64,000 bases of DNA from Chloroflexota bacterium (lineage in GTDB: Bacteria > Chloroflexota > Dehalococcoidia > FW602-bin16). The DNA is taken from the NCBI GenBank assembly GCA_004297765.1, contig SCTZ01000129.1, forward strand, positions 5,113-69,112. Reading direction: 5' to 3'. The first letter of the stretch is position 1, and the number at the start of each line of letters is the position of its first letter. Shown here piece after piece: positions 495-32,261 of this stretch. A model generated the notes under the pieces. It had not been told where the DNA came from, searched no databases, and saw only the letters and a program-made list of their open reading frames with translations. The translations under genes were made by a program, and so were the position numbers.

Positions 495-1328
495 ATGCGG
501 CCACCCATCGACCAGCAAAAAGCCTCTGTTGCCTGGCGAAGCGTCGAGTTGGCACGACACCCCGAGCGCCCGCTTACGCTCGACTATATTCGGCTCATTC
601 TCTCCGATTTCGTCGAGCTGCACGGCGATCGCCGCTATAGCGACGATGCCGCACTGGTCGGAGGGCTGGCGCGCTTCGGCAATCGGACCGTTGTGGTCAT
701 CGGACATCAAAAAGGCCGTGACACGCAGGAAAACGTCCGTCGCAACTTCGGCATGCCACACCCGGAGGGATTTCGGAAGGCGGCGCGCTTGATGGCGCAC
801 GCCGAGAAGTTCGGCTTCCCCATCATCTCCTTCATCGACACGCCCGGGGCCAGTCCCGATATGGAGGCCGAGGAAAGAGGGCAGGCCCAGGCCATCGCCG
901 AGAATCTGCTGCTAATGGCTCAACTGCGTGTTCCTATCATCGGCTGCGTCATTGGCGAGGGCAACAGCGGCGGTGCGCTGGCCATCGGCGTGGCGGATCG
1001 TCTGCTTATGCTGGAGCACGCCTACTTCTCCGTTGTGTCGCCCGAGGGGTGCGCCTCCATCCTGTGGCGCGACACCGCCTTCGCCCCACAGGCAGCCCAG
1101 GCCATGCGCATCACGGCCGGCGACCTCCTGGAGCTGCGGGTCGTCGACGAAGTGATCGCCGAGCCCACGGGTGGAGCCCACCTGAGTCCAGAGACCACGG
1201 CCGCCGCCCTCAAAGAGGCGCTTTCCCGCCACCTGACCGAGCTGACTCAGCTCGATGCCGACGGGCTGATCGCCGCTCGACACGAGAAGTACCGACAGCT
1301 GGGCACGGTCCTCCAGGAGCTGTCCTGA
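495..1328 (+). CDS. accA: Acetyl-CoA carboxylase carboxyltransferase alpha subunit
   Basis: 277 aa. [71 protein letters not shown] and [14 protein letters not shown] are near-identical to the conserved AccA blocks of E. coli and B. subtilis. Confidence 0.9.
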
Positions 1329-1356
1329 GTAGCACAGAAACCTTCTCAGGCACCCT

Positions 1357-2391
1357 CTACGCGTAGAACACGCGGGCAAGGTCGTACAGGCTCATGTCCA
1401 CCGTTCGATTGTGTGCCACGGCCTCGCGTAGTCGCACTGCCGTAATGCGGTTGTCCTTCAGCACCGGCAGGTAGCCCCATCGCTTTTCGTGGACCAGGTC
1501 CACAGCCGCCACCCCCACACGCGTGGCCAGTAGGCGATCGAAAACCGTCGGCGATCCCCCACGCTGCAGGTGCCCCAGCACTGTAACGCGGGACTCCAAC
1601 CCGGTGCGGCATTCGATCTCTCGGGCAACCCGATCGCCGATGCTCCGGCGGTCCAGCCGCATGTGCCCAAACGCATCCGTGGCACCCAGGTCGAACTCCT
1701 CGGGTAGATCGGTGATCTTGGCCCCCTCCGCCACCACGATGATGTTGAACGGCTTGCCGCGCTGGCGACCGCCGGCGATTTGTTCGCACATCTGGGCGAT
1801 AGTGCACGGCATCTCGGGAATGGCGATGAAATCCGCTCCACCAGCTAGCCCGCCAACGACGGCCACCCACCCCGCGTCGCGGCCCATCACCTCCACCACC
1901 ATCACGCGCCGATGGGCACTCGCCGTCGTGTTCAGCTTGTCAAGCGCAAACACTACCGTCGAAACCGCAGTATCAAAGCCGATGCAGTAGTCGGTCTCCG
2001 CTATATCGTTGTCCATGGTCTTTGGCACACCGACCGCGGGTATTCCCATCTCCGCCAGTGCCGCGGCCACGCTCAAGGTGTCGTCGCCGCCAATGGCCAC
2101 CAGCGCATCGATCCCGAACTTCTTGAGATTAGCCTGCAACTCCTTCCGGTGCTGCTCCGTCTTCAGCGGGTTGGTCCGGGTCGTGCCGAGAATCGTGCCA
2201 CCGAGGGGCATGATATACGCGACGTCATCGCGACGAAGGGGTCTGACGTTCCCCTCGCCCAGCAACCCAGCCCAGCCATCCACGATTCCCAGGACCTCAT
2301 ATCCGTAGAACTCGGCCCGGTACACCACGGCCCGGATGGCCGCATTCAGACCGGGTGCGTCACCGCCGCCGGTCAATACTCCGATACGCAT
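1357..2391 (-). CDS. pfkA: 6-phosphofructokinase (ATP- or PPi-dependent; not distinguished)
   Basis: 344 aa. The N-terminus MRIGVLTGGGDAPGLNAAIRAVV plus GGDDTL, PKTMDNDI and the MGR...G motifs are characteristic of the PFK family. Confidence 0.9.
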   Translation of the reverse strand: MRIGVLTGGGDAPGLNAAIRAVVYRAEFYGYEVLGIVDGWAGLLGEGNVRPLRRDDVAYIMPLGGTILGTTRTNPLKTEQHRKELQANLKKFGIDALVAIGGDDTLSVAAALAEMGIPAVGVPKTMDNDIAETDYCIGFDTAVSTVVFALDKLNTTASAHRRVMVVEVMGRDAGWVAVVGGLAGGADFIAIPEMPCTIAQMCEQIAGGRQRGKPFNIIVVAEGAKITDLPEEFDLGATDAFGHMRLDRRSIGDRVAREIECRTGLESRVTVLGHLQRGGSPTVFDRLLATRVGVAAVDLVHEKRWGYLPVLKDNRITAVRLREAVAHNRTVDMSLYDLARVFYA

Positions 2392-2654
2392 CTACCTACT
2401 CCTTCCCAGACCTACGCCCTTCCCTCGCCCAAGAGAAGCAGATGACAAGCACCCAGCGCGATTTTGGTCCGGCTCGAGGCTCCGCTCGGGAGCCTCACTG
2501 TGTTATACCCATATAATATTATGGAAACAAAAGCGGCTGCCGTCAAGGACATCCAGACGAGCGCTGTTCAGGCCGCCCTCGTAGGCCCTCGCGAAGCGTT
2601 GTGTTACTATGGAGGCACCACAATTCATGCCGGCTCCTTCCGGACCGAGGCGCG

Positions 2655-3254
2655 ATGGACGAAAACGAGCTCATAGCGCGCAGCCAGAAGAAAGACGTGG
2701 CAGCGTTCAACGTCCTGGTGGAACGCTACCAACAACTGGCCTACAACGTGGCACTCCGCATGCTGGGAGACGTCCAGTCCGCCGAGGATGCCACGCAGGA
2801 GGCTTTTGTTTCCGCCTTTGAGCACGTGAAGCAGTTCCGCGGCGGCAGCTTTCGCAGCTGGCTTCTCCGCATCGTCTCAAACGCCTGTCTGGACATGTTA
2901 CGATCGCGCAAGCGCCGTGCCAGCGTGCCGCTGGACGATCTCCCTGCCGACTGGGATTGCTCGCCGCTAGTGGCCGATCCCGACACGCCGGAGGAGTTCG
3001 TCCTACGCCGAGAGCTCAGCGCCCAGATCCAGCGCGCGCTCCTGGAGCTCCCTCCAGACCAGCGTGCCGCCGTCATCCTCTGCGACCTGCAGGGGCTGAG
3101 CTACGACGAGATCGCCATCATCACCGCGAGCTCTCTTGGCACGGTCAAATCGCGTATCAGTCGCGGACGAGCGCGCCTGCGCGATGTGCTACTCCGGGAC
3201 AGGGAACTTTTGGCCCCATCCCAGCGTCTTATCAACGAAGGGCAAGAAACATGA
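2655..3254 (+). CDS. ECF-type RNA polymerase sigma-70 family factor
   Basis: The internal ATG at 2655 gives MDENELIARSQKKDVAAFNVLVERYQQLAYNVALRMLGD..AEDATQEAFVSAF (region 2). Region 4 is DQRAAVILCDLQGLSYDEIAIITASSLGTVKSRISRGRARL. The stop overlaps the next start (ATGA at 3251-3254). Confidence 0.9.
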   Translation: MDENELIARSQKKDVAAFNVLVERYQQLAYNVALRMLGDVQSAEDATQEAFVSAFEHVKQFRGGSFRSWLLRIVSNACLDMLRSRKRRASVPLDDLPADWDCSPLVADPDTPEEFVLRRELSAQIQRALLELPPDQRAAVILCDLQGLSYDEIAIITASSLGTVKSRISRGRARLRDVLLRDRELLAPSQRLINEGQET

Positions 3255-4075
3255 GCTCAGCGTGTATCGAGGTCAGGGAGCTTCTCTCCCCCTATATTGA
3301 CGATCAGGTGACCCCGACGGAGCGAAGCACCGTGGAAACTCATCTGCGGGGATGCTCGGCGTGTGCGCGCGAGCTAGACACTCTGCGGGAGACGACGGCT
3401 CTGCTGCGACGCGTGCCCCAGGTGACCGTGCCGCGCTCCTTCACGCTGGAAGCGCCCCGACGGCAGCCCTCCGCGCTCTTCGCGTTCCTACGCGCTGGAT
3501 CCGCCCTGGCCACGGCCGTCTTCCTGGTGCTGCTGACTCTCGATGTCGTAACCTCGGGTGTCCTTCCCGTGGGCGGAGGATTCCTATCGTCTGCACCCAT
3601 CGCGAGCGAAGCGAATAGACCATCACCACCCGCCCCGCAGGCCGTGACTAGAAAAGAAGCTGCGTCGAAGGCTGACGATGGCCCCGCGGCCGCCCCGAGT
3701 CTTCGGTCCGCCCAACAGGAACAACTCGGAGCCGGTCAAGCTGCGAGTGCCGCGGCACCACAGGCGCAAGAGCTGAGCCCTGTGGCTCCCGCCGCTGCGC
3801 CACAGCCGCAAGGAGCGCCACCACTCCAATCCGATTCGGCCCTGAGCCGCCCGAATACCCAGCCGATGGCACCGTTCGGCTCTCCTACGAGCCCCGCGCC
3901 CGAGCCGGCAACGTCGGGTGATTCGGCGGCTTCCTCCGGCCCGACCCAACCCGAACAGGCGCTACGACTGGTGGAAGCCGCTGCTCTAGGCTTGGCCCTG
4001 GCGACGGGGATCGGCGCGCTCTGGTTTAGACGCAATACGACTCCAACAAGCAGCAGACGAAGCCAAAGGAGCTGA
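3251..4075 (+). CDS. Anti-sigma factor (zf-HC2 type), membrane-spanning
   Basis: MSSACIEVRELLSPYIDDQVTPTERSTVETHLRGCSACARELDTL carries the H-x3-C-x2-C zinc-finger anti-sigma motif. A TM helix follows (ALFAFLRAGSALATAVFLVLLTL), then an A/P/Q/S-rich low-complexity region and a second C-terminal hydrophobic helix. It is translationally coupled to the ECF sigma gene. Confidence 0.75.
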   Translation: MSSACIEVRELLSPYIDDQVTPTERSTVETHLRGCSACARELDTLRETTALLRRVPQVTVPRSFTLEAPRRQPSALFAFLRAGSALATAVFLVLLTLDVVTSGVLPVGGGFLSSAPIASEANRPSPPAPQAVTRKEAASKADDGPAAAPSLRSAQQEQLGAGQAASAAAPQAQELSPVAPAAAPQPQGAPPLQSDSALSRPNTQPMAPFGSPTSPAPEPATSGDSAASSGPTQPEQALRLVEAAALGLALATGIGALWFRRNTTPTSSRRSQRS

Positions 4076-4078
4076 CCG

Positions 4079-4519
4079 ATGACGAGAATCGTTGCCACCG
4101 TCCTTTTGCTGACCGGCGTGCTCGTGATGTCCTGTCAGACCACGTCCTCGGGACCCCCGTCAGATGACCAGGGGAAGTCAAAACCGGCCGCTAGCCCATC
4201 CCCGCAATCGACTCCCCCCTCCAGCCCGATTGCGGGCACGCCTGCGCAACCCACGGACAGCCCAAGCCAAGGGGAGACGCAGGTGGCAAACGTGGCCAGC
4301 AAGCAGCTTGCCGCCGATAGGGGCATCCCGATAGACCAGATCCAGGTAGTCAAAGTAGAGCAAGTGGAGTGGTCGGATACCAGCCTGGGCTGCCCGAAGC
4401 CCGGGTTCTTCTACGCCCAGGTGGTAACTCCCGGCTACAGGGTCATTCTATCTGCCCAGGGGACGACCTACGAGTACCACACGGCGGGGACGGAACGAGC
4501 GGTGTTGTGCGAGATGTAG
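4079..4519 (+). CDS. Predicted lipoprotein of unknown function
   Basis: 146 aa. The signal peptide has a lipobox-like LVMSC, followed by a P/S-rich linker and a C-terminal globular domain with two Cys (SLGCPKPG...AVLCE). It lies 3 nt downstream of the anti-sigma gene, so it is probably in the same operon. Confidence 0.55.
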   Translation: MTRIVATVLLLTGVLVMSCQTTSSGPPSDDQGKSKPAASPSPQSTPPSSPIAGTPAQPTDSPSQGETQVANVASKQLAADRGIPIDQIQVVKVEQVEWSDTSLGCPKPGFFYAQVVTPGYRVILSAQGTTYEYHTAGTERAVLCEM

Positions 4520-4542
4520 CAAGAGGAGCGAGACACCAGCAG

Positions 4543-4728
4543 TTACCTTAGCAGCCCTAGCCGCCGCATGTCTTCCTGCATCCAGCCAGCATCGGCAATT
4601 ATCCGGCTCAAAGTGCCAAGTGGTATGGTAGCACCCGATGAATGGATAGCCACCATTACCTTGCGGTCACCACGACGGTACATAGCATGGCTACCAGTCT
4701 GATGAGTTCTCTGAAAGCCATCTCGCAC
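4543..4728 (-). CDS. hicA: HicA-family mRNA interferase toxin
   Basis: The GSH motif (THQTGSHAMYRR) and C-terminal IPLGTLSRIIADAGW match the HicA/YcfA pattern. The ORF-track start is a GTG, and the conserved N-terminal residues extend upstream of it (see finding). Confidence 0.7.
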   Translation of the reverse strand: MRDGFQRTHQTGSHAMYRRGDRKVMVAIHSSGATIPLGTLSRIIADAGWMQEDMRRLGLLR

Positions 4729-4776
4729 CAGGGCGGCAATAAGACGCCGGGTAGAGACGTTGCGTGGCTTAGGGGC

Positions 4777-5007
4777 TCACAGTGTGACAGCGGCCACCGG
4801 GGCATCCACGACCTCGACATCGGGCGGCAGAGGCTCGCCATGAGCGAGGAGGTCCTCAACGCAGCAACGCACAGCATCCTGGATGTGGATGAGGGCTTCT
4901 TCCTTGGTGTTGCCCCAAGTATAGCAGGCCGGCAAGCTTGGAACGACAGCGTTCCAGCGGCCGTCTTCGTCCTGGCTCAAGTCAACTCTGAAGATATAGG
5001 ATTTCAT
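4777..5007 (-). CDS. hicB: HicB-family antitoxin (UPF0150-like, short form)
   Basis: The ATG at 5007 is preceded by GGTAGGAG. MKSYIFRVDLSQDEDGRWNAVVPSLPACYTWGNTKEEALIHIQDAV matches the HicB N-terminal domain pattern. Its TGA (4779-4777) abuts the hicA reading frame. Confidence 0.75.
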   Translation of the reverse strand: MKSYIFRVDLSQDEDGRWNAVVPSLPACYTWGNTKEEALIHIQDAVRCCVEDLLAHGEPLPPDVEVVDAPVAAVTL

Positions 5008-5196
5008 TTGTACGACTCCTACCCCACCTATTGTAGCATGCACGCGAGGGTCGCGGGTAGGTCTTCATCGCGTCCGATGAGGAGATCCGTCCAAGATCAC
5101 GTGGCACAGTTCAGCGGCTGGCGTCCTTCCATAACCCACAGGGGCGACCATGTGGTCGCCCCTGCGCTCAGTCTGCAGCCGTATTGTCGTCGTCCG

Positions 5197-7206
5197 CTAC
5201 CGTCTTCCCGCCGTGGGCGTGGCCGTGGGGACCGCGGCCGCCTTCGTGGGCGTGGGTGGCGGCGAGGTTGGCTGAGGGGTCGGGGTCTCCTCGGCCGGCT
5301 CGGCCGTCGCGACCGGCGTGGGGGTGACCGTCATGATCTCCTGCGGCGGGGCCGGTGCGCCGCCAGTGCCGATAAGAAGCACGTTGCGCTCCGGCCGGAA
5401 GCGAGTAAAGACCTTATCCTGACTGACGACCTGGCTGACACGCTGCACCGTTCGGTAGAACGTGATGTCTACGCCATCGATCGCGGTCTCCACCCAGACC
5501 TCGCGCCCCTTGGCCATCGCCGGGGTATACTGCTTGATGATGGAAGGATCGGCCTTCACGACGTTCGCCAGCTCTGGACCCTTGGTGGTGACTGTCCAAT
5601 CCGGCTTCGTGCCATACAAGCTGACGTACATATACTGGCCGTCGGTGCGCGTCTGGATCAGGAGGTAGTTGTCCGTATTGTTGCGGAACTTGAAGTCCAC
5701 GTCCGGCGGGTAGATCGTGGCATCCAGACCGGTCATTGTCGGCTGGCCGGCCATCGGCGCCTCATAGCGCAGGATACGATAGGCGTGCGGGATCCGTTCC
5801 ACGATCTCGTAGCCCGCTAGGAAGATGCTCTGGAAGGTGGTGGTCGAGACCTGGCAGATCCCGCCTCCGGGATCAGGCAGAGTATCGGCGCCGATGATGG
5901 CGAAACCCAGCTTGTAGCCGTTCTCTTCGGTCACGTCGCCGACCTCATCGACGAAGCTAAAGACGTCACCCGGCGCCACCACCACGCCATGGATGCGGGA
6001 GGTCCCCAACTCGACGTTGTAGCGGCGCTCTGCCGCGCCTCCGCTATAGTCAGTGCGTCGTTGTACGATCAACTCCTTGATGCCCAGCTTGGCCCCATCG
6101 TTCGGTCCGACCGCGGGCTTGGCAACCTTCATCGGCACTTCCAGTTTCCTGTCGCCCGAGGACACCGCCACAGTTTGGAGGCTCTGCACGAACTGATCCG
6201 CGTCCAGCTCTCGCCCTTCGCGCCCCTGTGTGATGGCCTTCAGATTGCCGCCGCTGTAGTCAAAGCGAGCGTTCAAACCCTTCTGAAGCACTTCTTCCCC
6301 GATCTTGTCGGCCAGTTCGCGCACCGCATCTGGGTTGAGCGCAGCGGAGACCTGGTGCTTGCCATTGACCTGCGTACTCTGAAAGGTTACCATGCCGACC
6401 AGCTTGTCCGGTGGCAAAGTCCATTTGTCCACTACCTTCCCATCGAACGTGAACTGGATCGGAGCCGCGATCATCTGCTGAGCCATCGCCCTGGCTGGCG
6501 CCAGATCCTGTTCGGTGATCTGCGGCGCAGCTCGGGTGACGGGGATAGTGATGGGATTCGAGGAGAGCGCCCGCACCTCCTTCTCGATCTCATCCCGCAG
6601 CTTGGCCTCATCGAGCGCGAGCCCCTCTTTAGGAGGCAACAGACGCACCTGGTCCCCGTCGATCTTCAAGGCCCCGTTGACAACGCTCTGATCGATCTGC
6701 AGTGAAAGCCGCTTGGCGAAGGCGGCGAACTTATCTCCGTCCAGACTGTAAATCGGCTCCAGGCTCACGCCAGCGCCGAGCGCCCCGACCTGGGCGATGA
6801 GCTTATCCAGCGGGTTCCCTTCCTTGCCGGACTGCAAAGCCTTGTCGATCGTCTTCTGCGTGTCGAATCGCACCCCCATCTGCGCGGGCGAGGATTTGAA
6901 CTCCTGACCACCCTGCCGCAACACAATGGTGCCAGCCTCATACGAGGTCAGCTTGGCCTGCAGCACCTTGCTGGCATCATCGCGATCGAGCCCGCCCACG
7001 TCGACTCCATGCACCTTGAGACCCAGGATCACCCGATCTCTATACACCACCTGGTAGGCGATCACCCCAGCCACGGCAACTACCAGTATGGCAAGCCCCA
7101 GCAGGATCATCATCTGTAGCGAGCCCGGCCCGGTCGTCTGGAGCGTGTCCGCCCCCGGTCCCTCCGGTCTCTTGCCTCTACCCTCAATATCCCCTCTGGT
7201 CCTCAT
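5197..7206 (-). CDS. VanW-domain protein with N-terminal membrane anchor and C-terminal Pro/Thr-rich tail
   Basis: 669 aa. It has a TM helix MMILLGLAILVVAVAGVIAY. The VanW core is GVVVAPGDVFSFVDEVGDVTEENGYKLGFAI...GGGICQVSTTTFQSIFLAGYEIVERIPHAY. The tail is PTPVATAEPAEETPTPQPTSPPPTPT. The exact start (7206 or an internal Met) is uncertain. Confidence 0.85.
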   Translation of the reverse strand: MRTRGDIEGRGKRPEGPGADTLQTTGPGSLQMMILLGLAILVVAVAGVIAYQVVYRDRVILGLKVHGVDVGGLDRDDASKVLQAKLTSYEAGTIVLRQGGQEFKSSPAQMGVRFDTQKTIDKALQSGKEGNPLDKLIAQVGALGAGVSLEPIYSLDGDKFAAFAKRLSLQIDQSVVNGALKIDGDQVRLLPPKEGLALDEAKLRDEIEKEVRALSSNPITIPVTRAAPQITEQDLAPARAMAQQMIAAPIQFTFDGKVVDKWTLPPDKLVGMVTFQSTQVNGKHQVSAALNPDAVRELADKIGEEVLQKGLNARFDYSGGNLKAITQGREGRELDADQFVQSLQTVAVSSGDRKLEVPMKVAKPAVGPNDGAKLGIKELIVQRRTDYSGGAAERRYNVELGTSRIHGVVVAPGDVFSFVDEVGDVTEENGYKLGFAIIGADTLPDPGGGICQVSTTTFQSIFLAGYEIVERIPHAYRILRYEAPMAGQPTMTGLDATIYPPDVDFKFRNNTDNYLLIQTRTDGQYMYVSLYGTKPDWTVTTKGPELANVVKADPSIIKQYTPAMAKGREVWVETAIDGVDITFYRTVQRVSQVVSQDKVFTRFRPERNVLLIGTGGAPAPPQEIMTVTPTPVATAEPAEETPTPQPTSPPPTPTKAAAVPTATPTAGRR

Positions 7207-26723: not shown

Positions 26724-27026
26724 ATGGCGAGGAGAGTGAGCGCGGCAATGGCGAAATCTCACCTTTCCGACCTAATGGCCAGCGTTGCTCATCAGGGCCA
26801 GCACTACATCATCGAACGGCGCGGCAAGCCGGTGGCCGCGCTTGTAACCGTAAACGAGCTGGAGAAGCTGGAGCAAGAGAGCGCGAAGTCAGACCGCCCG
26901 CTGGGCGCCCTTGCGCTGGTTGGCGCGTGGCGCGAAATCGAGGAAGACGAATTCGATCGGATACTGGCCGACATCTACAGCGAACGCGAGCGTGATACCG
27001 GGCGGCAAGTGGACCTTGGCAACTGA
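26724..27026 (+). CDS. Phd/YefM-family antitoxin
   Basis: MARRVSAAMAKSHLSDLMASVAHQGQHYIIERRGKPVAALVTVNELEKLE is the canonical Phd/YefM N-terminal fold pattern. GTAGGAGGG lies upstream. Confidence 0.8.
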   Translation: MARRVSAAMAKSHLSDLMASVAHQGQHYIIERRGKPVAALVTVNELEKLEQESAKSDRPLGALALVGAWREIEEDEFDRILADIYSERERDTGRQVDLGN

Positions 27027-27450
27027 TTATCTGCTCGACACCGACATCTTGAGCGATCTGCTAAAAAGGACGCCCTCGACCAGGCTCATCACGAAGCTGG
27101 CGGCGATTCCGCCGGAGCACCAGTTCACCTCCAGCATCACGCTGGGCGAGTTGATCTACGGAGCCAGCCGCGTCAGGGAACGTGGTCCGCTTTTGCTCAA
27201 ACGAATCGAGGACAACCTGTTGCCGAACTTGCCCATCCTCCCGTTCGACGCCGTGGCCGCGCGCCGCTACGGCGAGCTGAGGGCAACTCTTGAGCGACAG
27301 GGAATCCTGATCGGCGACGCCGACCTTAGAATCGCAGCAATCGCCCTTTCAAGAAATCTTGTAATAGTAACCGGCAACGTCCGCCACTTCCAGCGGATCG
27401 CGGAGGCCGGTGGTTTGGTGGTGGAAAACTGGCTCGAAGAAAGAGACTGA
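27016..27450 (+). CDS. vapC: PIN-domain toxin (VapC family)
   Basis: The TTG start overlaps the phd stop. YLLDTDILSDLLK, TSSITLGELIYG and LIGDADLRIAAIALSRNLVIVTGNVRHF supply the PIN acidic residues in canonical positions. Confidence 0.85.
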   Translation: MATDYLLDTDILSDLLKRTPSTRLITKLAAIPPEHQFTSSITLGELIYGASRVRERGPLLLKRIEDNLLPNLPILPFDAVAARRYGELRATLERQGILIGDADLRIAAIALSRNLVIVTGNVRHFQRIAEAGGLVVENWLEERD

Positions 27451-27542
27451 AAATGCCCGGGCCTGGACCTTCGTAATCTGATGTGCTAGCATTAAGCATC
27501 AGATGCGCACCGCTGGCGTGCCACCGAGTTGGAGGAAAAAGC

Positions 27543-27770
27543 ATGCGCACGACCCTAGATGTTGAAGATGATGTTCTCCTAGCAGCCAAGGAAATCGCTA
27601 AACAGCGAGGCGTTGGGGTCGGCAAAGTACTATCTGACCTGGCCCGACAATCATTGACCCGCCGGGTTTCGGGTCCCACCAGAGATGGGCTTCCGCTGTT
27701 CCCGATCCAGCCGGACGCAGGCGTCGTCACGTTGGAGCTGGTCAATCGGCTACGAGACGAAACCCCATGA
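27543..27770 (+). CDS. vapB: VapB-type antitoxin (MRTTLDxDD family)
   Basis: The ATG at 27543 follows GGAGGAAAAAGC. MRTTLDVEDDVLLAAKEIAKQRGVGVGKVLSDLARQSL is the typical N-terminus of this VapB class. The stop overlaps the next gene (ATGA). Confidence 0.75.
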   Translation: MRTTLDVEDDVLLAAKEIAKQRGVGVGKVLSDLARQSLTRRVSGPTRDGLPLFPIQPDAGVVTLELVNRLRDETP

Positions 27771-28201
27771 CAACCTATCTGTTGGATGTCAACCTCCTGC
27801 TTGCATTGGGTGATCCAATGCACGTGCATCATGAAACGGCTCACCGCTGGTTCGCGAGCACGGGCCATCATTCCTGGGCCACCTGTCCGATTACCGAGAA
27901 CGGCTTTCTCCGCGTCGCCAGTCATCCAAGCTACCCTAACCGGCCTGGAGACGTCCTCGCTGTGCTTGCCATGCTCGGCCGGCTATACAAAGCGGAAGGC
28001 CACGAGTTTTGGCCAGAAGATATCAGTATTCTCGACATCCTGGAGCCCGGCACGATCATCACACACGCTCAGATCACAGATGTTTACCTGGTTGGATTGG
28101 CGGTTCACAGGAAAGGCAAACTGGCCACGCTGGATCAGCGCATCCCGGTCCATGCTGTTCGCGGCGGACAGGAAGCGGTGGAACTCATTCGGGGACAATG
28201 A
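27767..28201 (+). CDS. vapC: PIN-domain toxin (VapC family, second copy in tandem module)
   Basis: MTTYLLDVNLLLALGDPMHVHHETAHRWF...ITENGFLRV...ITDVYLVGLAVHRKGKLATLD is the TIGR00028-like VapC pattern. Confidence 0.8.
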   Translation: MTTYLLDVNLLLALGDPMHVHHETAHRWFASTGHHSWATCPITENGFLRVASHPSYPNRPGDVLAVLAMLGRLYKAEGHEFWPEDISILDILEPGTIITHAQITDVYLVGLAVHRKGKLATLDQRIPVHAVRGGQEAVELIRGQ

Positions 28202-28247: not shown

Positions 28248-28787
28248 ATGCGTTACCAGTTCTCCGAGAAAGGGACGTTCTTTTCGACCCGCCAGCGCGG
28301 AGATGAGGTGCGCGGAGACATTGAGGCGCGGCTACAGGGACTTGAGCCGAATGAGCCTTTGATCCTGGACTTCGCTGGCGTGGAAATGATCAGCTTCTCT
28401 TTTGCGGATGAGGTCGTTGGGCGCCTCTTGGAAAGCAGCAAGGCAGGCGGTCTAGGCGACCGTGTCATCCTTCTCGCGAATTTGAACGCTGAGACCAGTG
28501 ATCCGATCGAGAGATCGCTTGAGCGAAGGGAGCTCATTGCGGCCTACCTAGACGTTGACGGAAGCGTGCGCCTAATGTGTGCGCCACAGCATCTGGAGCA
28601 AACCTTCACTGCCGTGCAGGCGCACCAGCAGTTCAGAACTCCTGAGTTGGCCACAGAACTAAACATAAGTGTGCAGGCGTGCAACAACCGGTTGAAACCG
28701 CTCCTCGCCGCGGGCTTGCTCAGACGGAAGAACACAACAGGCAAGTCGGGTGGGCGACAGTTCGTATATTCTCCGACTATGTCGTGA
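28248..28787 (+). CDS. DUF4325 (STAS-like) domain fused to a C-terminal winged helix-turn-helix
   Basis: 179 aa. FSTRQRGDEVRGDIEARL...PLILDFAGVEMISFSFADEVVGRLL matches the DUF4325 pattern. The C-terminus ELATELNISVQACNNRLKPLLAAGLLRR...GGRQFVY looks like a MarR/ArsR-type wHTH. Confidence 0.6.
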   Translation: MRYQFSEKGTFFSTRQRGDEVRGDIEARLQGLEPNEPLILDFAGVEMISFSFADEVVGRLLESSKAGGLGDRVILLANLNAETSDPIERSLERRELIAAYLDVDGSVRLMCAPQHLEQTFTAVQAHQQFRTPELATELNISVQACNNRLKPLLAAGLLRRKNTTGKSGGRQFVYSPTMS

Positions 28788-28887
28788 CATAGCAAAGAGC
28801 TGGCGTTCGACCGTCAGATGTCGCCTCTCCACAGAAACGGGCCTTCGACTGTGCAACAGAGGGGTCTGCTGTAGACGGTCACTGATA

Positions 28888-29715
28888 CTAGCAATCACCG
28901 AAAAAAGGGGACGATCCGATATTTGCATGTATTGCGGCACCCTCTAGATCAGGGAACAGCCTGCCATAAGTAATGCCCATAAGCTCAAGATCCCGCAAAG
29001 CACGAAGCGCTTCCCGTGCAGGTATTTCATATCGTTCGAGGTTTGCTGCAAGCCCCCGACTGATCAAGTATGATTCGAGGTCTTGAAACTCATCGTGTGT
29101 TAGACAAGTGAAGCGGCCCTGCTGGGCCCGCTGCCGATGGTAGTCATCTCGTCGCGCATCGATTATCCGGAACTCTCCCGGCACTTCCAGGTCGCTTGTG
29201 AGCACGAGGGCCCAGATAACAACCGTGCCTTTAGGGAAGAAAAGTGCTCCCAAAGTTCCGGGTCCAGATCTCATACCGATCTTGAAGCCCTTGTTGCTTT
29301 CTTCGACGGCATCCAAGAACGCGAAGAATGCAGCGATATACGGGCTCTCGGTCCAATCAAGTAGTGGTGTGATTAGACCGTGATGTCTGCCAAGAGCCCA
29401 CCATTCGTTTTCGTCAGCCCGCCCGTCGCTCGTCTGTCCGGGCAGTCCCTTCACCTGTTCCTTGAACGCGGCCAAATAACTTCTGAGCAGGGGTTTGTAT
29501 CGCCTCACGACGGAGCGATCATCCTGCGCCTCCAAAGCGAACAAAAGCCTGCGCTCCCATAGCGATGACAACGTCCAGTCCGGATTGCCATGACCTCTAT
29601 AGAGGCGCATCCCAAGCCGCTTACCTACCATTCTGCGTACTTCAGGGCCAAACTCCTCCCACCTCTCACACCTGAAGACCGTTACTCCCCCTTCGGGATC
29701 CTGCGTCTCTTCCAC
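28888..29715 (-). CDS. FRG-domain protein
   Basis: 275 aa from a GTG start with GGAGAGG upstream. LYRGHGNPDW, ALGRHHGLITPLLDWTESPYIAAFFAF and RQRAQQGRFT correspond to the FRG-family conserved blocks ((F/Y)RG, QH.G.PT.LLDWT, Q.G.F). Local GC is visibly lower than in the flanks. Confidence 0.7.
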   Translation of the reverse strand: MEETQDPEGGVTVFRCERWEEFGPEVRRMVGKRLGMRLYRGHGNPDWTLSSLWERRLLFALEAQDDRSVVRRYKPLLRSYLAAFKEQVKGLPGQTSDGRADENEWWALGRHHGLITPLLDWTESPYIAAFFAFLDAVEESNKGFKIGMRSGPGTLGALFFPKGTVVIWALVLTSDLEVPGEFRIIDARRDDYHRQRAQQGRFTCLTHDEFQDLESYLISRGLAANLERYEIPAREALRALRDLELMGITYGRLFPDLEGAAIHANIGSSPFFGDC

Positions 29716-29730
29716 AATCCGTTACCTCTC

Positions 29731-30060
29731 CTAAGATCGATGGCTGATACCGCATGAGCAGTCCATTGCTTTATAATGCTCCGCTGAACTGCTCGCACAA
29801 TAGACAGCGCATTCTACCATGCAAGCTCCAACTCGTGCTATTTCGAAGATCGGTTTCGTTTGGGAATGAACAGCCTTGCTCACCACGCCCGCCTGCGCTG
29901 CAAGCCACGTCGACCGGTCATCCCTCTTTGTTCCATCGTCAGCGAGTATTGCCAGCACGCCAACGAAATCTGTCGGGACACACCCAGGGCATGAGAACTC
30001 AAGCGCACTTTTCTTCGGCTCCAAAACGCACGATAATTGACGAGAATCGGAGGTGAACAT
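29731..30060 (-). CDS. Hypothetical Cys-rich small protein, possibly co-transcribed with the FRG gene
   Basis: The open frame ends 15 nt before the FRG start. The composition is protein-like in places (DFVGVLAILADDGTKRDD...KPIFEIARVGACMVE) but I recognise no family. The start is uncertain and would abut the divergent alkD-like start. It could be non-coding. Confidence 0.25.
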   Translation of the reverse strand: MFTSDSRQLSCVLEPKKSALEFSCPGCVPTDFVGVLAILADDGTKRDDRSTWLAAQAGVVSKAVHSQTKPIFEIARVGACMVECAVYCASSSAEHYKAMDCSCGISHRS

Positions 30061-30736
30061 GCAATACGAAGATCTCTTGGAGAAGCTACACTCCCTATCC
30101 GACCCCCAGGGCAAGGCGGGCATGGCCCGCTACGGCATCAACACCCAGAGCGCACTGGGCATCTCCCTCTATACCCTCAGGCCCCTGGCCAAAGAGACGG
30201 GCAAAGATCATCTCCTTGCCCAGCAGCTATGGGACTCCGGCATCCATGAGGCGCGCATTCTGGCCAGCATGGTGGACGACCCGCGCCTGGTGGACGAGGA
30301 GCAGATGGAGAGCTGGGTAAGCGACTTTGACTCTTGGGACATCTGTGATCAGACGTGCAGCAATCTCTTCGACAAGACGGCCTTGGCCTACCAGAAGACC
30401 GCGGAGTGGAGCGAAAGAACCGAAACCTTCGTGAAGCGGGCTGGCTTCGCTCTCATGGCCGCTCTGTCGGTGCACGACAAGAAGGCATCCGACGAGAAGA
30501 TCGCGGCATTCCTCCCCGTCATCCTGCGCGAATCTACCGACGACCGCAATTTTGTGAAAAAGGCCGTCAACTGGGCCCTGCGGCAGGTCGGAAAGCGCAA
30601 CCTGGTCCTGAACGCGCTGGCCATCGAGACAGCTCAGGAGATCAAGAACCTGGACGCGCGAGCTGCGCGCTGGATTGCGTCCGACGCGCTGCGCGAGCTG
30701 ACGAGCGACAAGGTTCAACAGCGACTGCGAAAATGA
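30059..30736 (+). CDS. DNA alkylation repair protein (AlkD-like HEAT-repeat family, PF08713-type)
   Basis: The ATG at 30059 follows GGAGGTG. ...MARYGINTQSALGISLYTLRPLAKE..LAQQLWDSGIHEARILASMV...WVSDFDSWDICDQTC...FVKRAGFALMAAL...NFVKKAVNWALRQVGKRN is the characteristic DNA_alkylation family pattern. Confidence 0.85.
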   Translation: MQYEDLLEKLHSLSDPQGKAGMARYGINTQSALGISLYTLRPLAKETGKDHLLAQQLWDSGIHEARILASMVDDPRLVDEEQMESWVSDFDSWDICDQTCSNLFDKTALAYQKTAEWSERTETFVKRAGFALMAALSVHDKKASDEKIAAFLPVILRESTDDRNFVKKAVNWALRQVGKRNLVLNALAIETAQEIKNLDARAARWIASDALRELTSDKVQQRLRK

Positions 30737-31614
30737 GCCTCATCGAACCTGTCGGCACAGAGCTTGTCTTCGCCGGCCAGCCTTACCGCGATCTTCAACC
30801 GCGTCCGCGCCGGATCCATGGCGTCGACTTCAGCGGCGCGGTGGACGCCGGGTGGAAGATCTGGATCGCCAGCGGTAGCGTAGACGAGGACTGCTTGCGG
30901 ATCGAGGACTGCCGACGAGCCGAGGATCTGCCAGGATCGGGCAAGCCACTCGATCGTTGCTTGCCAGCCCTCCGGGAACTCATCGCCGGTGAGACACACG
31001 GCGTCTTCGGGCTCGACTTCCCCTTTGGGCTGCCCGACGATCTCGTCAGGAACTATGGCGACTGGGACCAGTTCGTCCTGGACTTCTCCAAGCGCTACCC
31101 CGGTCCCAAGGATTTTAGGCAGGACTGCTTCGAGCAAGCAGACCATCATGAGCGAAAGCGGGCGACAGACCGCGAAAACGCTGCTCCGTTCGCGGCCTAT
31201 AATCTCAAGCTATATCGTCAGACCTACTACGGGATTCGAGACGTGCTCGCTCCCCTGGTGCGCGAGAGGCGGGCCTATGTCCTGCCCATGCAGAGCGCTC
31301 ATTCCGGTCGGCCCTGGCTGGTAGAAATCTGCCCGGCATGCACGTTGAAGAAAGAGCATCTCTATTTGTCGTACAAGGGAACGAGCATGGACCGCCGGGA
31401 GGCTCGCGCATACATCCTGGCAGCGATCGAGAGGATCGCCCCGCTGGTCATCCCTGACAAGGACCTGCGCGCGCGGATCATCGCTGACGCGGGAGGAGAT
31501 GCCCTGGATAGCGTCATCGCGGCCGTTGCGACGTTCCGCTCCATTCCACGAATGATCGATGGATACACCGGAAAGCAGATGCCCTATCCGCTGGAGGGGT
31601 TCATCTTCGTCTGA
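30733..31614 (+). CDS. DUF429-family protein (predicted RNase H-fold nuclease)
   Basis: The ATG at 30733 overlaps the upstream stop (ATGA). IHGVDFSGAVDAGWKIWIA (N-terminal acidic residue), FGLDFPFGLP and GGDALDSVIAAVA (C-terminal acidic residue) match the DUF429 pattern as I remember it. Confidence 0.65.
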   Translation: MSLIEPVGTELVFAGQPYRDLQPRPRRIHGVDFSGAVDAGWKIWIASGSVDEDCLRIEDCRRAEDLPGSGKPLDRCLPALRELIAGETHGVFGLDFPFGLPDDLVRNYGDWDQFVLDFSKRYPGPKDFRQDCFEQADHHERKRATDRENAAPFAAYNLKLYRQTYYGIRDVLAPLVRERRAYVLPMQSAHSGRPWLVEICPACTLKKEHLYLSYKGTSMDRREARAYILAAIERIAPLVIPDKDLRARIIADAGGDALDSVIAAVATFRSIPRMIDGYTGKQMPYPLEGFIFV

Positions 31615-31737: not shown

Positions 31738-31941
31738 ATGGGCCAGCGGTTCTGGCAACAGGCCGAGCGCGACGTTGAAAGCCGCTACCCATCGGACGAC
31801 GAAAGCGAGCCGATCCCAGCCGATCTGATAAGCGAGGAGGATGCGCTCACGTCGGTCGGACGCGCCGAGGAGATAATGGCATGGGTGCAGACACTGCTGC
31901 AGCAACCGCCGGGCAAAACCCGGCCCAAAACGAGCTACTGA
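31738..31941 (+). pseudogene. HEPN-like remnant (first helix and C-terminal RYP-containing helix only)
   Basis: MGQRFWQQAERDVESRYPSDDESEPIPADLISEEDALTSVGRAEEIMAWVQTLL resembles the first helix (W..A..D...A) joined directly to the C-terminal ..RYP....ea...l..Ae.i..wv..l segment of PF05168-type HEPN proteins. The central roughly 70 aa are missing. Low-confidence call. Confidence 0.3.
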
Positions 31942-32261
31942 TCAGATTCGCCCGCCTCATGCGCGAGCGATATGGGGCTCGTCTGTACCTCTTTGGCTCT
32001 CGTGCCCGCGGGACCGCTCATTCTGAGAGCGATTATGATATTGTGGCTGTGGCGCACGCATTTGAAGGTGAACGCAAGATAGAGCGCGCACTAGATCGAT
32101 TCGAGTTATGGGTCGAGGCAGGTGGCTGGGCCATCGGGCTGGACCTGCATTGCTACACGCCTGATGAATTCCGTAGGGAATCGGCTGGGCTTGGCTTCAT
32201 AGGGCAGTCCAAGAGGCGTGGCGAGCTGATCAGAATCCTTACGTCGCGGCGTGCGGCCTAG
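31881..32261 (+). CDS. Nucleotidyltransferase-domain protein (MNT-type, minimal NTase)
   Basis: LIRFARLMRERYGARLYLFGSRARGTAHSESDYDIVAV carries the G[SG]x9-13Dx[DE] polymerase-beta-type NTase signature. The only canonical start (31881) overlaps the HEPN-like ORF by 61 nt. Confidence 0.75.
   Translation: MGADTAAATAGQNPAQNELLIRFARLMRERYGARLYLFGSRARGTAHSESDYDIVAVAHAFEGERKIERALDRFELWVEAGGWAIGLDLHCYTPDEFRRESAGLGFIGQSKRRGELIRILTSRRAA

Follow-up and report, generated by a model that had tools for sequence, protein, structure and literature searches.

An apparently stand-alone FRG-domain gene and an orphan CapS-family repressor gene are neighbors in a Chloroflexota accessory island

CapK and CapS form a kinase-repressor pair; its description, published in 2026, draws mainly on Proteobacteria (Chambers et al., EMBO J 2026, PMC13373217). 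CapK is an HTH-STAS-GHKL kinase that is switched on by single-stranded DNA. The repressor CapS has a length of 184 amino acids (aa) and comprises a STAS domain and a winged helix-turn-helix (wHTH) domain, and its STAS domain dimerizes the protein on palindromic operators (PMC13373217). Phosphorylation of CapS at Ser54 by CapK makes the dimer leave these operators, so that the adjacent immune operon is derepressed (PMC13373217). The same study describes VapKSC, a three-gene operon encoding VapK (STAS-GHKL), VapS (STAS plus a short C-terminal helix), and VapC (PMC13373217). Frg proteins have been placed in the ADP-ribosyltransferase (ART) superfamily with a suggested NADase activity (Aravind laboratory, PMC9503650), and the PADLOC candidate defense family PDC-S15 is still uncharacterized, with no member for which an activity or a phage phenotype has been demonstrated (PMC12482510). 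Genes related to CapS and to the PDC-S15/Frg clade were found side by side in the DNA analyzed here, a window of 64,000 nucleotides (nt) from a Chloroflexota bacterium (contig SCTZ01000129.1 of assembly GCA_004297765.1, positions 5,113 to 69,112). The patch under study, at positions 28248 to 30060 of this window, contains a gene for a DUF4325-wHTH fusion protein, a convergent gene for an FRG-domain protein, and a small Cys-rich open reading frame (ORF) directly upstream of the latter. An initial annotation of the patch had proposed that the three ORFs could form one undescribed conflict or regulatory module.

Analysis of gene neighborhoods did not reveal such a module. The surroundings of FRG homologs were inspected within 5 kb at 80 loci, each from the genome of a different species, and 82 loci with homologs of the DUF4325-wHTH protein were assembled. 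At the 80 FRG loci, tblastn searches with the small ORF and with the DUF4325-wHTH protein gave no relatives, and the DUF4325-wHTH profile matched nothing except for one marginal wHTH sequence. Clustering of the same-strand ORFs directly upstream of the FRG genes at these loci yielded no family and no ORF similar to the one in the window. The 82 DUF4325-wHTH loci contained no FRG gene, no PIN gene, and no relative of the VapC or VapB protein encoded in the window. Judged by the refutation criterion that the initial annotation itself had set, this lack of conserved co-occurrence refutes the hypothesis of a three-gene module; the FRG homologs were often found near defense genes, as described below. 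The patch represents an unremarkable part of an accessory toxin-antitoxin (TA)/defense island rather than a three-gene system. With a probability of about 0.7, we interpret it as a mosaic of independent pieces, namely, a stand-alone FRG gene, an orphan CapS-type repressor gene, and a small ORF that is most likely not translated.

The gene located at positions 28248 to 28787 on the plus strand encodes a protein of 179 aa. Pfam analysis (DUF4325, E value of 9.7e-8; HTH_24, E value of 3.3e-5) and an AlphaFold (AF2) model (predicted local distance difference test score [pLDDT] of 95.2) agreed on an N-terminal STAS-like domain fused to a C-terminal wHTH domain, which is the architecture given in the initial annotation. 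Foldseek comparison of the model retrieved wHTH regulators of the ArsR/MarR type and RsbS (6jhk_B; probability of 1.0, E value of 0.013). Searching the Protein Data Bank (PDB) with the family profile revealed a nearly full-length match to a chain of 184 aa (9z71_A; E value of 2e-10 over 22-181/23-180) and matches to entries 9z72 and 9z73 (E value of 1.4e-7). These three entries were identified as two CapS proteins from their chain lengths and from the residue positions reported in PMC13373217, where the residue numbering corresponds to the chain numbering minus 2. The window sequence on its own, rather than the profile, matched the solved CapS with an E value of 9.1e-5. All 19 invariant residues of the family are present in the window protein, including S51, which is positioned at the N terminus of the helix spanning residues 50 to 65 (STAS helix 2 in the AlphaFold model). 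In the alignment, S51 corresponds to the phospho-acceptor S54 of CapS, K150 to the DNA-contacting K151, and G168-G169 to G169-G170 of the wing. In contrast, the position of CapS N145 is occupied by alanine (A144) in the subfamily of the window protein, which has an invariant N146-N147 instead. Like CapS, the window protein thus combines a STAS and a wHTH domain within about 180 aa and carries the serine, the lysine, and the Gly-Gly wing. On the strength of the near full-length profile match, these conserved residues, and the modeled STAS-wHTH fold, the gene is assigned by prediction to the CapS family. The encoded protein is not visibly decaying, as judged from the retention of every invariant residue.

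Relatives of this gene are nearly always accompanied by a kinase-like gene. Where 950 nt or more of upstream sequence was available, a gene for a protein of about 285 aa directly preceded the capS-like gene in the same orientation at 43 of 46 loci, or in 34 of 37 groups after collapsing at 90% identity. This partner has no Pfam annotation, and its profile gave no significant match to PDB sequences. Its consensus contains the motifs of a GHKL kinase, i.e., the N box (ExxxNAxxH), a DxGxG motif (G1), and a GxxGxG-type motif (G2). Comparison by hhalign with a HATPase_c profile built from the kinases of this genome gave a probability of 97% (E value of 6.5e-11), and the partner also matched phrog_3364 (E value of 5e-27). 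A relationship of the partner to FRG proteins was considered and rejected on the grounds that it has no Pfam FRG match and carries the GHKL motifs. The partner family appears to consist of CapK/VapK-like kinases that, at about 285 aa, seemingly differ from CapK in lacking the N-terminal HTH domain. An N-terminal STAS domain is weakly indicated; this assignment stays unconfirmed because hhalign revealed no similarity between the N terminus of the partner and the STAS domain of the CapS-like proteins.

The pair of a kinase of about 285 aa and a STAS-wHTH protein of about 185 aa was observed in Chloroflexota, Actinomycetota, and soil metagenomes (e.g., locus L006, positions 4036 to 5552). At two loci, kinase-like ORFs are positioned on both sides of the capS-like gene (L125, positions 216 to 2593; L129, positions 3072 to 5465). 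On the Janibacter melonis plasmid NZ_CP046475.1 (positions 1122 to 5468), the kinase-DUF4325 pair is divergent from a small operon that ends in a ThiF/E1 adenylyltransferase gene. CapKS has been reported in association with Bub ubiquitination-like operons, which agrees with this position beside an E1 (ThiF) operon, and some relatives of the window gene share with CapK-CapS a location next to E1/ubiquitin-like (Bub-type) operons. One PADLOC model of the DISARM protein DrmA (PDLC02567; 1750 positions) was matched by the partner at positions of approximately 30 to 240 (E value of 7.5e-9) and, weakly, by the STAS domain of the window protein at positions 318 to 360 (E value of 0.0034). Matches of both proteins to the same model suggest that some DrmA proteins may carry a fused kinase-STAS sensor module at their N terminus.

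In contrast to the CapK-CapS loci and to most relatives, the window contains no kinase gene upstream of the capS-like gene. In two independent assemblies, its place is occupied by a vapBC pair. Searches of the whole 5.6-Mb assembly, which is listed as 99.9% complete, revealed no homolog of the kinase either (best E value of 0.55 with a single sequence and of 0.03 with the profile). The weak profile matches, up to this E value of 0.03, were ordinary histidine kinases, one of them in an ORF with an additional HATPase_c_2 match. The genome encodes 19 proteins of the HATPase_c_2 type, including one of 138 aa that resembles SpoIIAB/RsbW. Orphan copies without the kinase represent about 8% of the nonredundant capS-like loci (3 of 37). 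The window protein shares with SpoIIAB-SpoIIAA and RsbW-RsbV the logic of a GHKL serine kinase and its STAS substrate, as well as a structural resemblance of its STAS domain to RsbS. It differs from these systems in that the STAS protein would itself be the DNA-binding output, with no sigma factor involved, and in that the kinase is absent from the window.

The FRG-domain protein is encoded on the minus strand at positions 28888 to 29715 (275 aa, GTG start codon). The ribosome binding site (RBS) of its own that had been noted initially, GGAGAGG, was confirmed from the sequence and lies 9 nt upstream of the start codon. The protein matched Pfam family PF08867 with 64.8 bits (gathering cutoff of 25). 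It also matched the PDC-S15 model PDLC04937 of PADLOC over its full length (E value of 9.7e-50; residues 6 to 266 on positions 7 to 246 of 254). A total of 576 homologs from many phyla were found, the closest being about 50% identical. The [FY]RG motif corresponds to Y39-R40-G41 in the window protein, which retains 23 of 23 invariant columns of an alignment of 26 sequences. With regard to the ART superfamily, the alignment contains, in our reading, no invariant glutamate at the position where ARTs of the R-S-E type have one. Foldseek searches of PDB and BFVD with the AF2 model of the protein (pLDDT of 88.9) gave no match with an E value below 0.2; the two best specific PDB matches were the ART toxins TreTu and TreX, which were not significant (E values of 1.1 to 1.8; target TM scores of 0.49 and 0.39). 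The FRG profile likewise gave no match to PDB sequences.

Among the 143 ORFs immediately adjacent to the FRG homologs at the 80 loci, HsdS (13 ORFs) and HsdR (8 to 9 ORFs) were the most common families, and Abi_2 (4 ORFs) and Mrr (2 ORFs) were also present. At 24 of the 80 loci, the FRG gene is located inside a type I restriction-modification (R-M) operon. These R-M-embedded homologs lie between hsdS/hsdM and hsdR, come mostly from Proteobacteria, and are about 30% identical to the window protein. The neighbors of the closest homologs are unrelated genes (Type ISP enzyme, ThiC, and ThrRS), and no recurrent partner gene was found across the 80 loci. Among 41 genomes of the same class, the only full-length FRG copy was that of the window itself. 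Because the neighbors of its homologs are variable and often belong to type I R-M or Abi systems, the FRG gene has the appearance of a candidate defense gene that stands alone and was acquired horizontally, i.e., a mobile single-gene unit; like the rest of the PDC-S15/Frg clade, it would act as a single gene with homologs in R-M and Abi contexts. The assumption that DUF4325 and FRG proteins are associated with biological conflicts held up for both, FRG as a PDC-S15 member found beside R-M, Abi_2, and Mrr genes and DUF4325-wHTH as a protein with the architecture of CapS, which regulates immune operons.

Analysis of the region upstream of the capS-like gene revealed a TA pair, here called vapB2-vapC2, on the same strand. 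The vapC2 gene (positions 27767 to 28201) encodes a PIN-domain toxin of a canonical VapBC pair (NCBIfam TIGR00028, E value of 1e-25, above the cutoff; Pfam PIN). The preceding ORF, vapB2 (positions 27543 to 27770; 75 aa), was called as a gene, and there is an overlap of 4 nt between its stop codon and the vapC2 start. It has no Pfam match, and its product is presumably a VapB-like antitoxin, on account of this position and of the N-terminal motif MRTTLDVEDD, which we take to be that of VapB antitoxins. A perfect 8-bp inverted repeat, ATCTGATG-N13-CATCAGAT, was detected by a palindrome scan at positions 27476 to 27504, approximately 40 nt upstream of vapB2. The capS-like gene starts 46 nt after the vapC2 stop codon. 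Close relatives carry a clear promoter of the form TTGAC-N17-TAnnnT and short repeats between the kinase gene and the capS-like gene; neither element is present in the window. As no promoter of its own was detected, the capS-like gene is probably cotranscribed with vapB2-vapC2 from the promoter of that pair, and the inverted repeat probably serves this vapB2-vapC2(-capS-like) unit as its operator.

This arrangement allows an alternative explanation, according to which the orphan repressor still controls a neighbor, either FRG through its leader or vapB2-vapC2-capS through the palindrome at positions 27476 to 27504, with another GHKL serine kinase or none at all taking the place of CapK. Besides the adjacent immune operon, CapS proteins also repress their own promoter (PMC13373217). 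The candidate immune gene FRG lies 100 nt from the capS-like gene, this being the spacer between the two convergent stop codons (positions 28788 to 28887, read from the sequence). The intact protein with its phospho-acceptor serine, the perfect inverted repeat upstream of the operon to which the gene probably belongs, and the set of HATPase_c_2-type proteins, with the small SpoIIAB/RsbW-like one among them, are also in line with such a role. Against this, the target of CapKS is a co-oriented immune operon located downstream on the same strand, whereas FRG is convergent to the capS-like gene. Neither the capS-FRG spacer nor the FRG leader yielded an operator-like palindrome, and scans of the spacer also revealed no terminator-like site. 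The antitoxin itself normally occupies the operator of a TA module, and capS-like and FRG genes did not co-occur at any of the 162 loci. A shared operator in the region upstream of the capS-like gene and in the FRG leader was considered and rejected; the two sequences have one 9-mer in common, with 0.14 expected by chance. Continued control of a neighboring gene is therefore considered unlikely. A broader version, in which a kinase-less CapS repressor was captured behind the VapBC operon and now serves as a kinase-independent or cross-phosphorylated regulator that links the TA module to FRG, is regarded as quite improbable.

The FRG leader comprises the 343 nt between the FRG start codon and a divergent operon (positions 29716 to 30058; 52% GC [guanine plus cytosine]) and contains the small Cys-rich ORF on the minus strand. 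This ORF extends from position 30060 to position 29731 (109 aa) or, if read from the ATG at position 30123, comprises 130 aa, and it ends 15 nt before the GTG of FRG. It could be a lineage-specific gene that is cotranscribed with FRG and encodes a zinc-binding immunity or antitoxin partner which restrains a toxic FRG enzyme. The uninterrupted 109 to 130 codons on the FRG strand at such a short distance would suit this explanation, and so would the 8 Cys residues, which include CxxC and Cx3Cx3C spacings, and a codon score that is the highest among the six frames. The cysteine content (8 in 109 residues) is only marginally unusual, since we estimate that about 3.8 Cys are expected from base composition alone. 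No match was found in PADLOC, Pfam, NCBIfam, or PHROGs. An exhaustive phmmer search of 1.84 billion representative proteins gave two matches, both of which were rejected as spurious because they are tandem-repeat proteins that aligned in several stretches. The ORF product is also missing from a collection of 15 billion proteins that holds both neighboring proteins with identical boundaries. At the 80 FRG loci, no related upstream ORF was present, and the nearest large ORFs of the R-M-embedded copies are the flanking R-M genes. The GC contents at the three codon positions are flat (0.54, 0.51, and 0.52), and the codon score of -0.12 lies below the 5th percentile of the real genes of this genome. 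Neither ATG is preceded by a Shine-Dalgarno (SD) motif, which FRG, the capS-like gene, and the alkD-like gene of the divergent operon all have, and the ORF was not called as a gene in either of two assemblies. The 130-aa form would overlap the start of the alkD-like gene. Overall, the small ORF very probably represents noncoding leader and promoter DNA, and a protein partner of FRG at this position is considered quite unlikely. For the possible two-gene minus-strand unit of the initial annotation, the coordinates and the 15-nt gap are exact. Nothing in the homology searches, codon use, SD motifs, or gene calls pointed to the small ORF as a gene. PADLOC analysis identified FRG as PDC-S15 and gave nothing for the small ORF.

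The explanation that vapB2-vapC2-capS is a kinase-less variant of VapKSC, in which the STAS domain binds and modulates the PIN toxin, is very improbable: a PIN.4 subfamily has been reported to be transcriptionally coupled to DUF4325 genes (PMC5499597), the STAS protein of VapKSC is the antitoxin of VapC (PMC13373217), the PIN toxin gene of the window adjoins on the same strand a gene for a STAS protein of the CapS/VapS kind, and Escherichia VapS is a weak match of the family profile (9z7o_A; E value of 0.015), but the window lacks VapK, its gene order is B-C-S rather than K-S-C, its STAS protein has a full wHTH domain instead of the short C-terminal (inhibitory) helix of VapS, the canonical VapC2 has an overlapping VapB-like antitoxin of its own and no detectable similarity to solved chains, among them the VapC chain from the VapKSC structure, and PIN or VapB neighbors were found at 0 of the 82 capS-like loci.

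The mosaic of independent pieces is the preferred interpretation. In such a mosaic, FRG would be a stand-alone PDC-S15 member with its own RBS and its 343-nt leader. Based on the literature on its superfamily, it may be an ART-like enzyme that acts on NAD+ during phage infection, either as a NADase or as an ADP-ribosylating effector. The DUF4325-wHTH protein would be a CapS-type repressor without its CapK kinase, and it may act as a kinase-independent, constitutive DNA-binding protein or be the remnant of a disrupted CapKS locus. The region of the small ORF would be untranslated leader and promoter DNA common to FRG and the divergent alkD-like operon. Several observations weigh against parts of this interpretation. 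The fully intact capS-like protein runs counter to a decaying relic, and the location of a CapS-type regulator beside a candidate immune gene could have a function in this single genome even if it is not conserved elsewhere. Foldseek did not confirm the ART fold of FRG, with TreTu and TreX at E values of about 1. An open frame of 130 codons in DNA with 52% GC is uncommon by chance (approximately 0.1% per frame start), and, with the best codon score of the six frames, the small ORF could possibly be a young orphan gene.

The composition of the patch differs modestly from that of the genome. At positions 28800 to 30050, the GC content is 54.3%, compared to a genome mean of 60.7% (standard deviation of 3.0 in windows of 1,250 nt), which places the patch in the lowest 3.4% of windows; the drop seen initially at about 28.8 to 30.05 kb is thus real but modest. 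The GC content at third codon positions (GC3) is lowered across the entire TA-capS-FRG block from 27.5 to 30.06 kb (0.67 for the capS-like gene and 0.57 for FRG, compared to 0.74 for the long genes of the genome). The next two genes, encoding an AlkD-like protein with a DNA_alkylation domain and a DUF429 protein (positions 30059 to 31614), have native-like GC3 values of 0.80 and 0.74, respectively, and delimit the low-GC3 block on its right-hand side. They overlap by 4 nt, and the ATG of the alkD-like gene at position 30059 is preceded by a strong RBS (GGAGGTG). On the other side of the block, a first TA module is encoded on the plus strand at positions 26724 to 27450, with a Phd/YefM antitoxin gene (positions 26724 to 27026; Pfam PhdYeFM_antitox, E value of 6.4e-10) and a PIN toxin gene (positions 26992 to 27450; E value of 7.7e-15), both of which were also called in the independent assembly. 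Two TA modules, Phd/YefM plus PIN and a VapB-like ORF plus VapC, were confirmed in front of the patch, and the ORF coordinates, the domain calls, the GGAGAGG motif, and the 15-nt gap of the initial annotation were all exact. The independent assembly of the same DNA (a Logan contig) yielded identical gene calls, with none in the 343-nt gap between FRG and the alkD-like gene. Rfam analysis of positions 28700 to 30200 gave nothing above noise, promoter and terminator scans stayed at the level of shuffled sequences, and no tRNA gene that could mark an integration site was found in the window. The search for direct or inverted repeats bounding a possible inserted element revealed only short matches at chance level in the flanks. 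Farther downstream, an MNT-type nucleotidyltransferase encoded at positions 31881 to 32261 matched the PADLOC candidate models PDC-S09 (best E value of 1.9e-8).

The analysis removes a false lead and gives two of the three ORFs a precise identity. FRG and its leader form a compact unit of 1.2 kb that can be cloned to test the PDC-S15 defense candidate. If the orphan CapS-like repressor were indeed a captured regulator linking the TA module to FRG, the locus would represent a CapKS circuit that has been rewired and is blind to DNA damage. For the family as a whole, the CapK-CapS-type pair appears to have a widespread relative with a shorter kinase of about 285 aa in the Chloroflexota and Actinomycetota samples examined.

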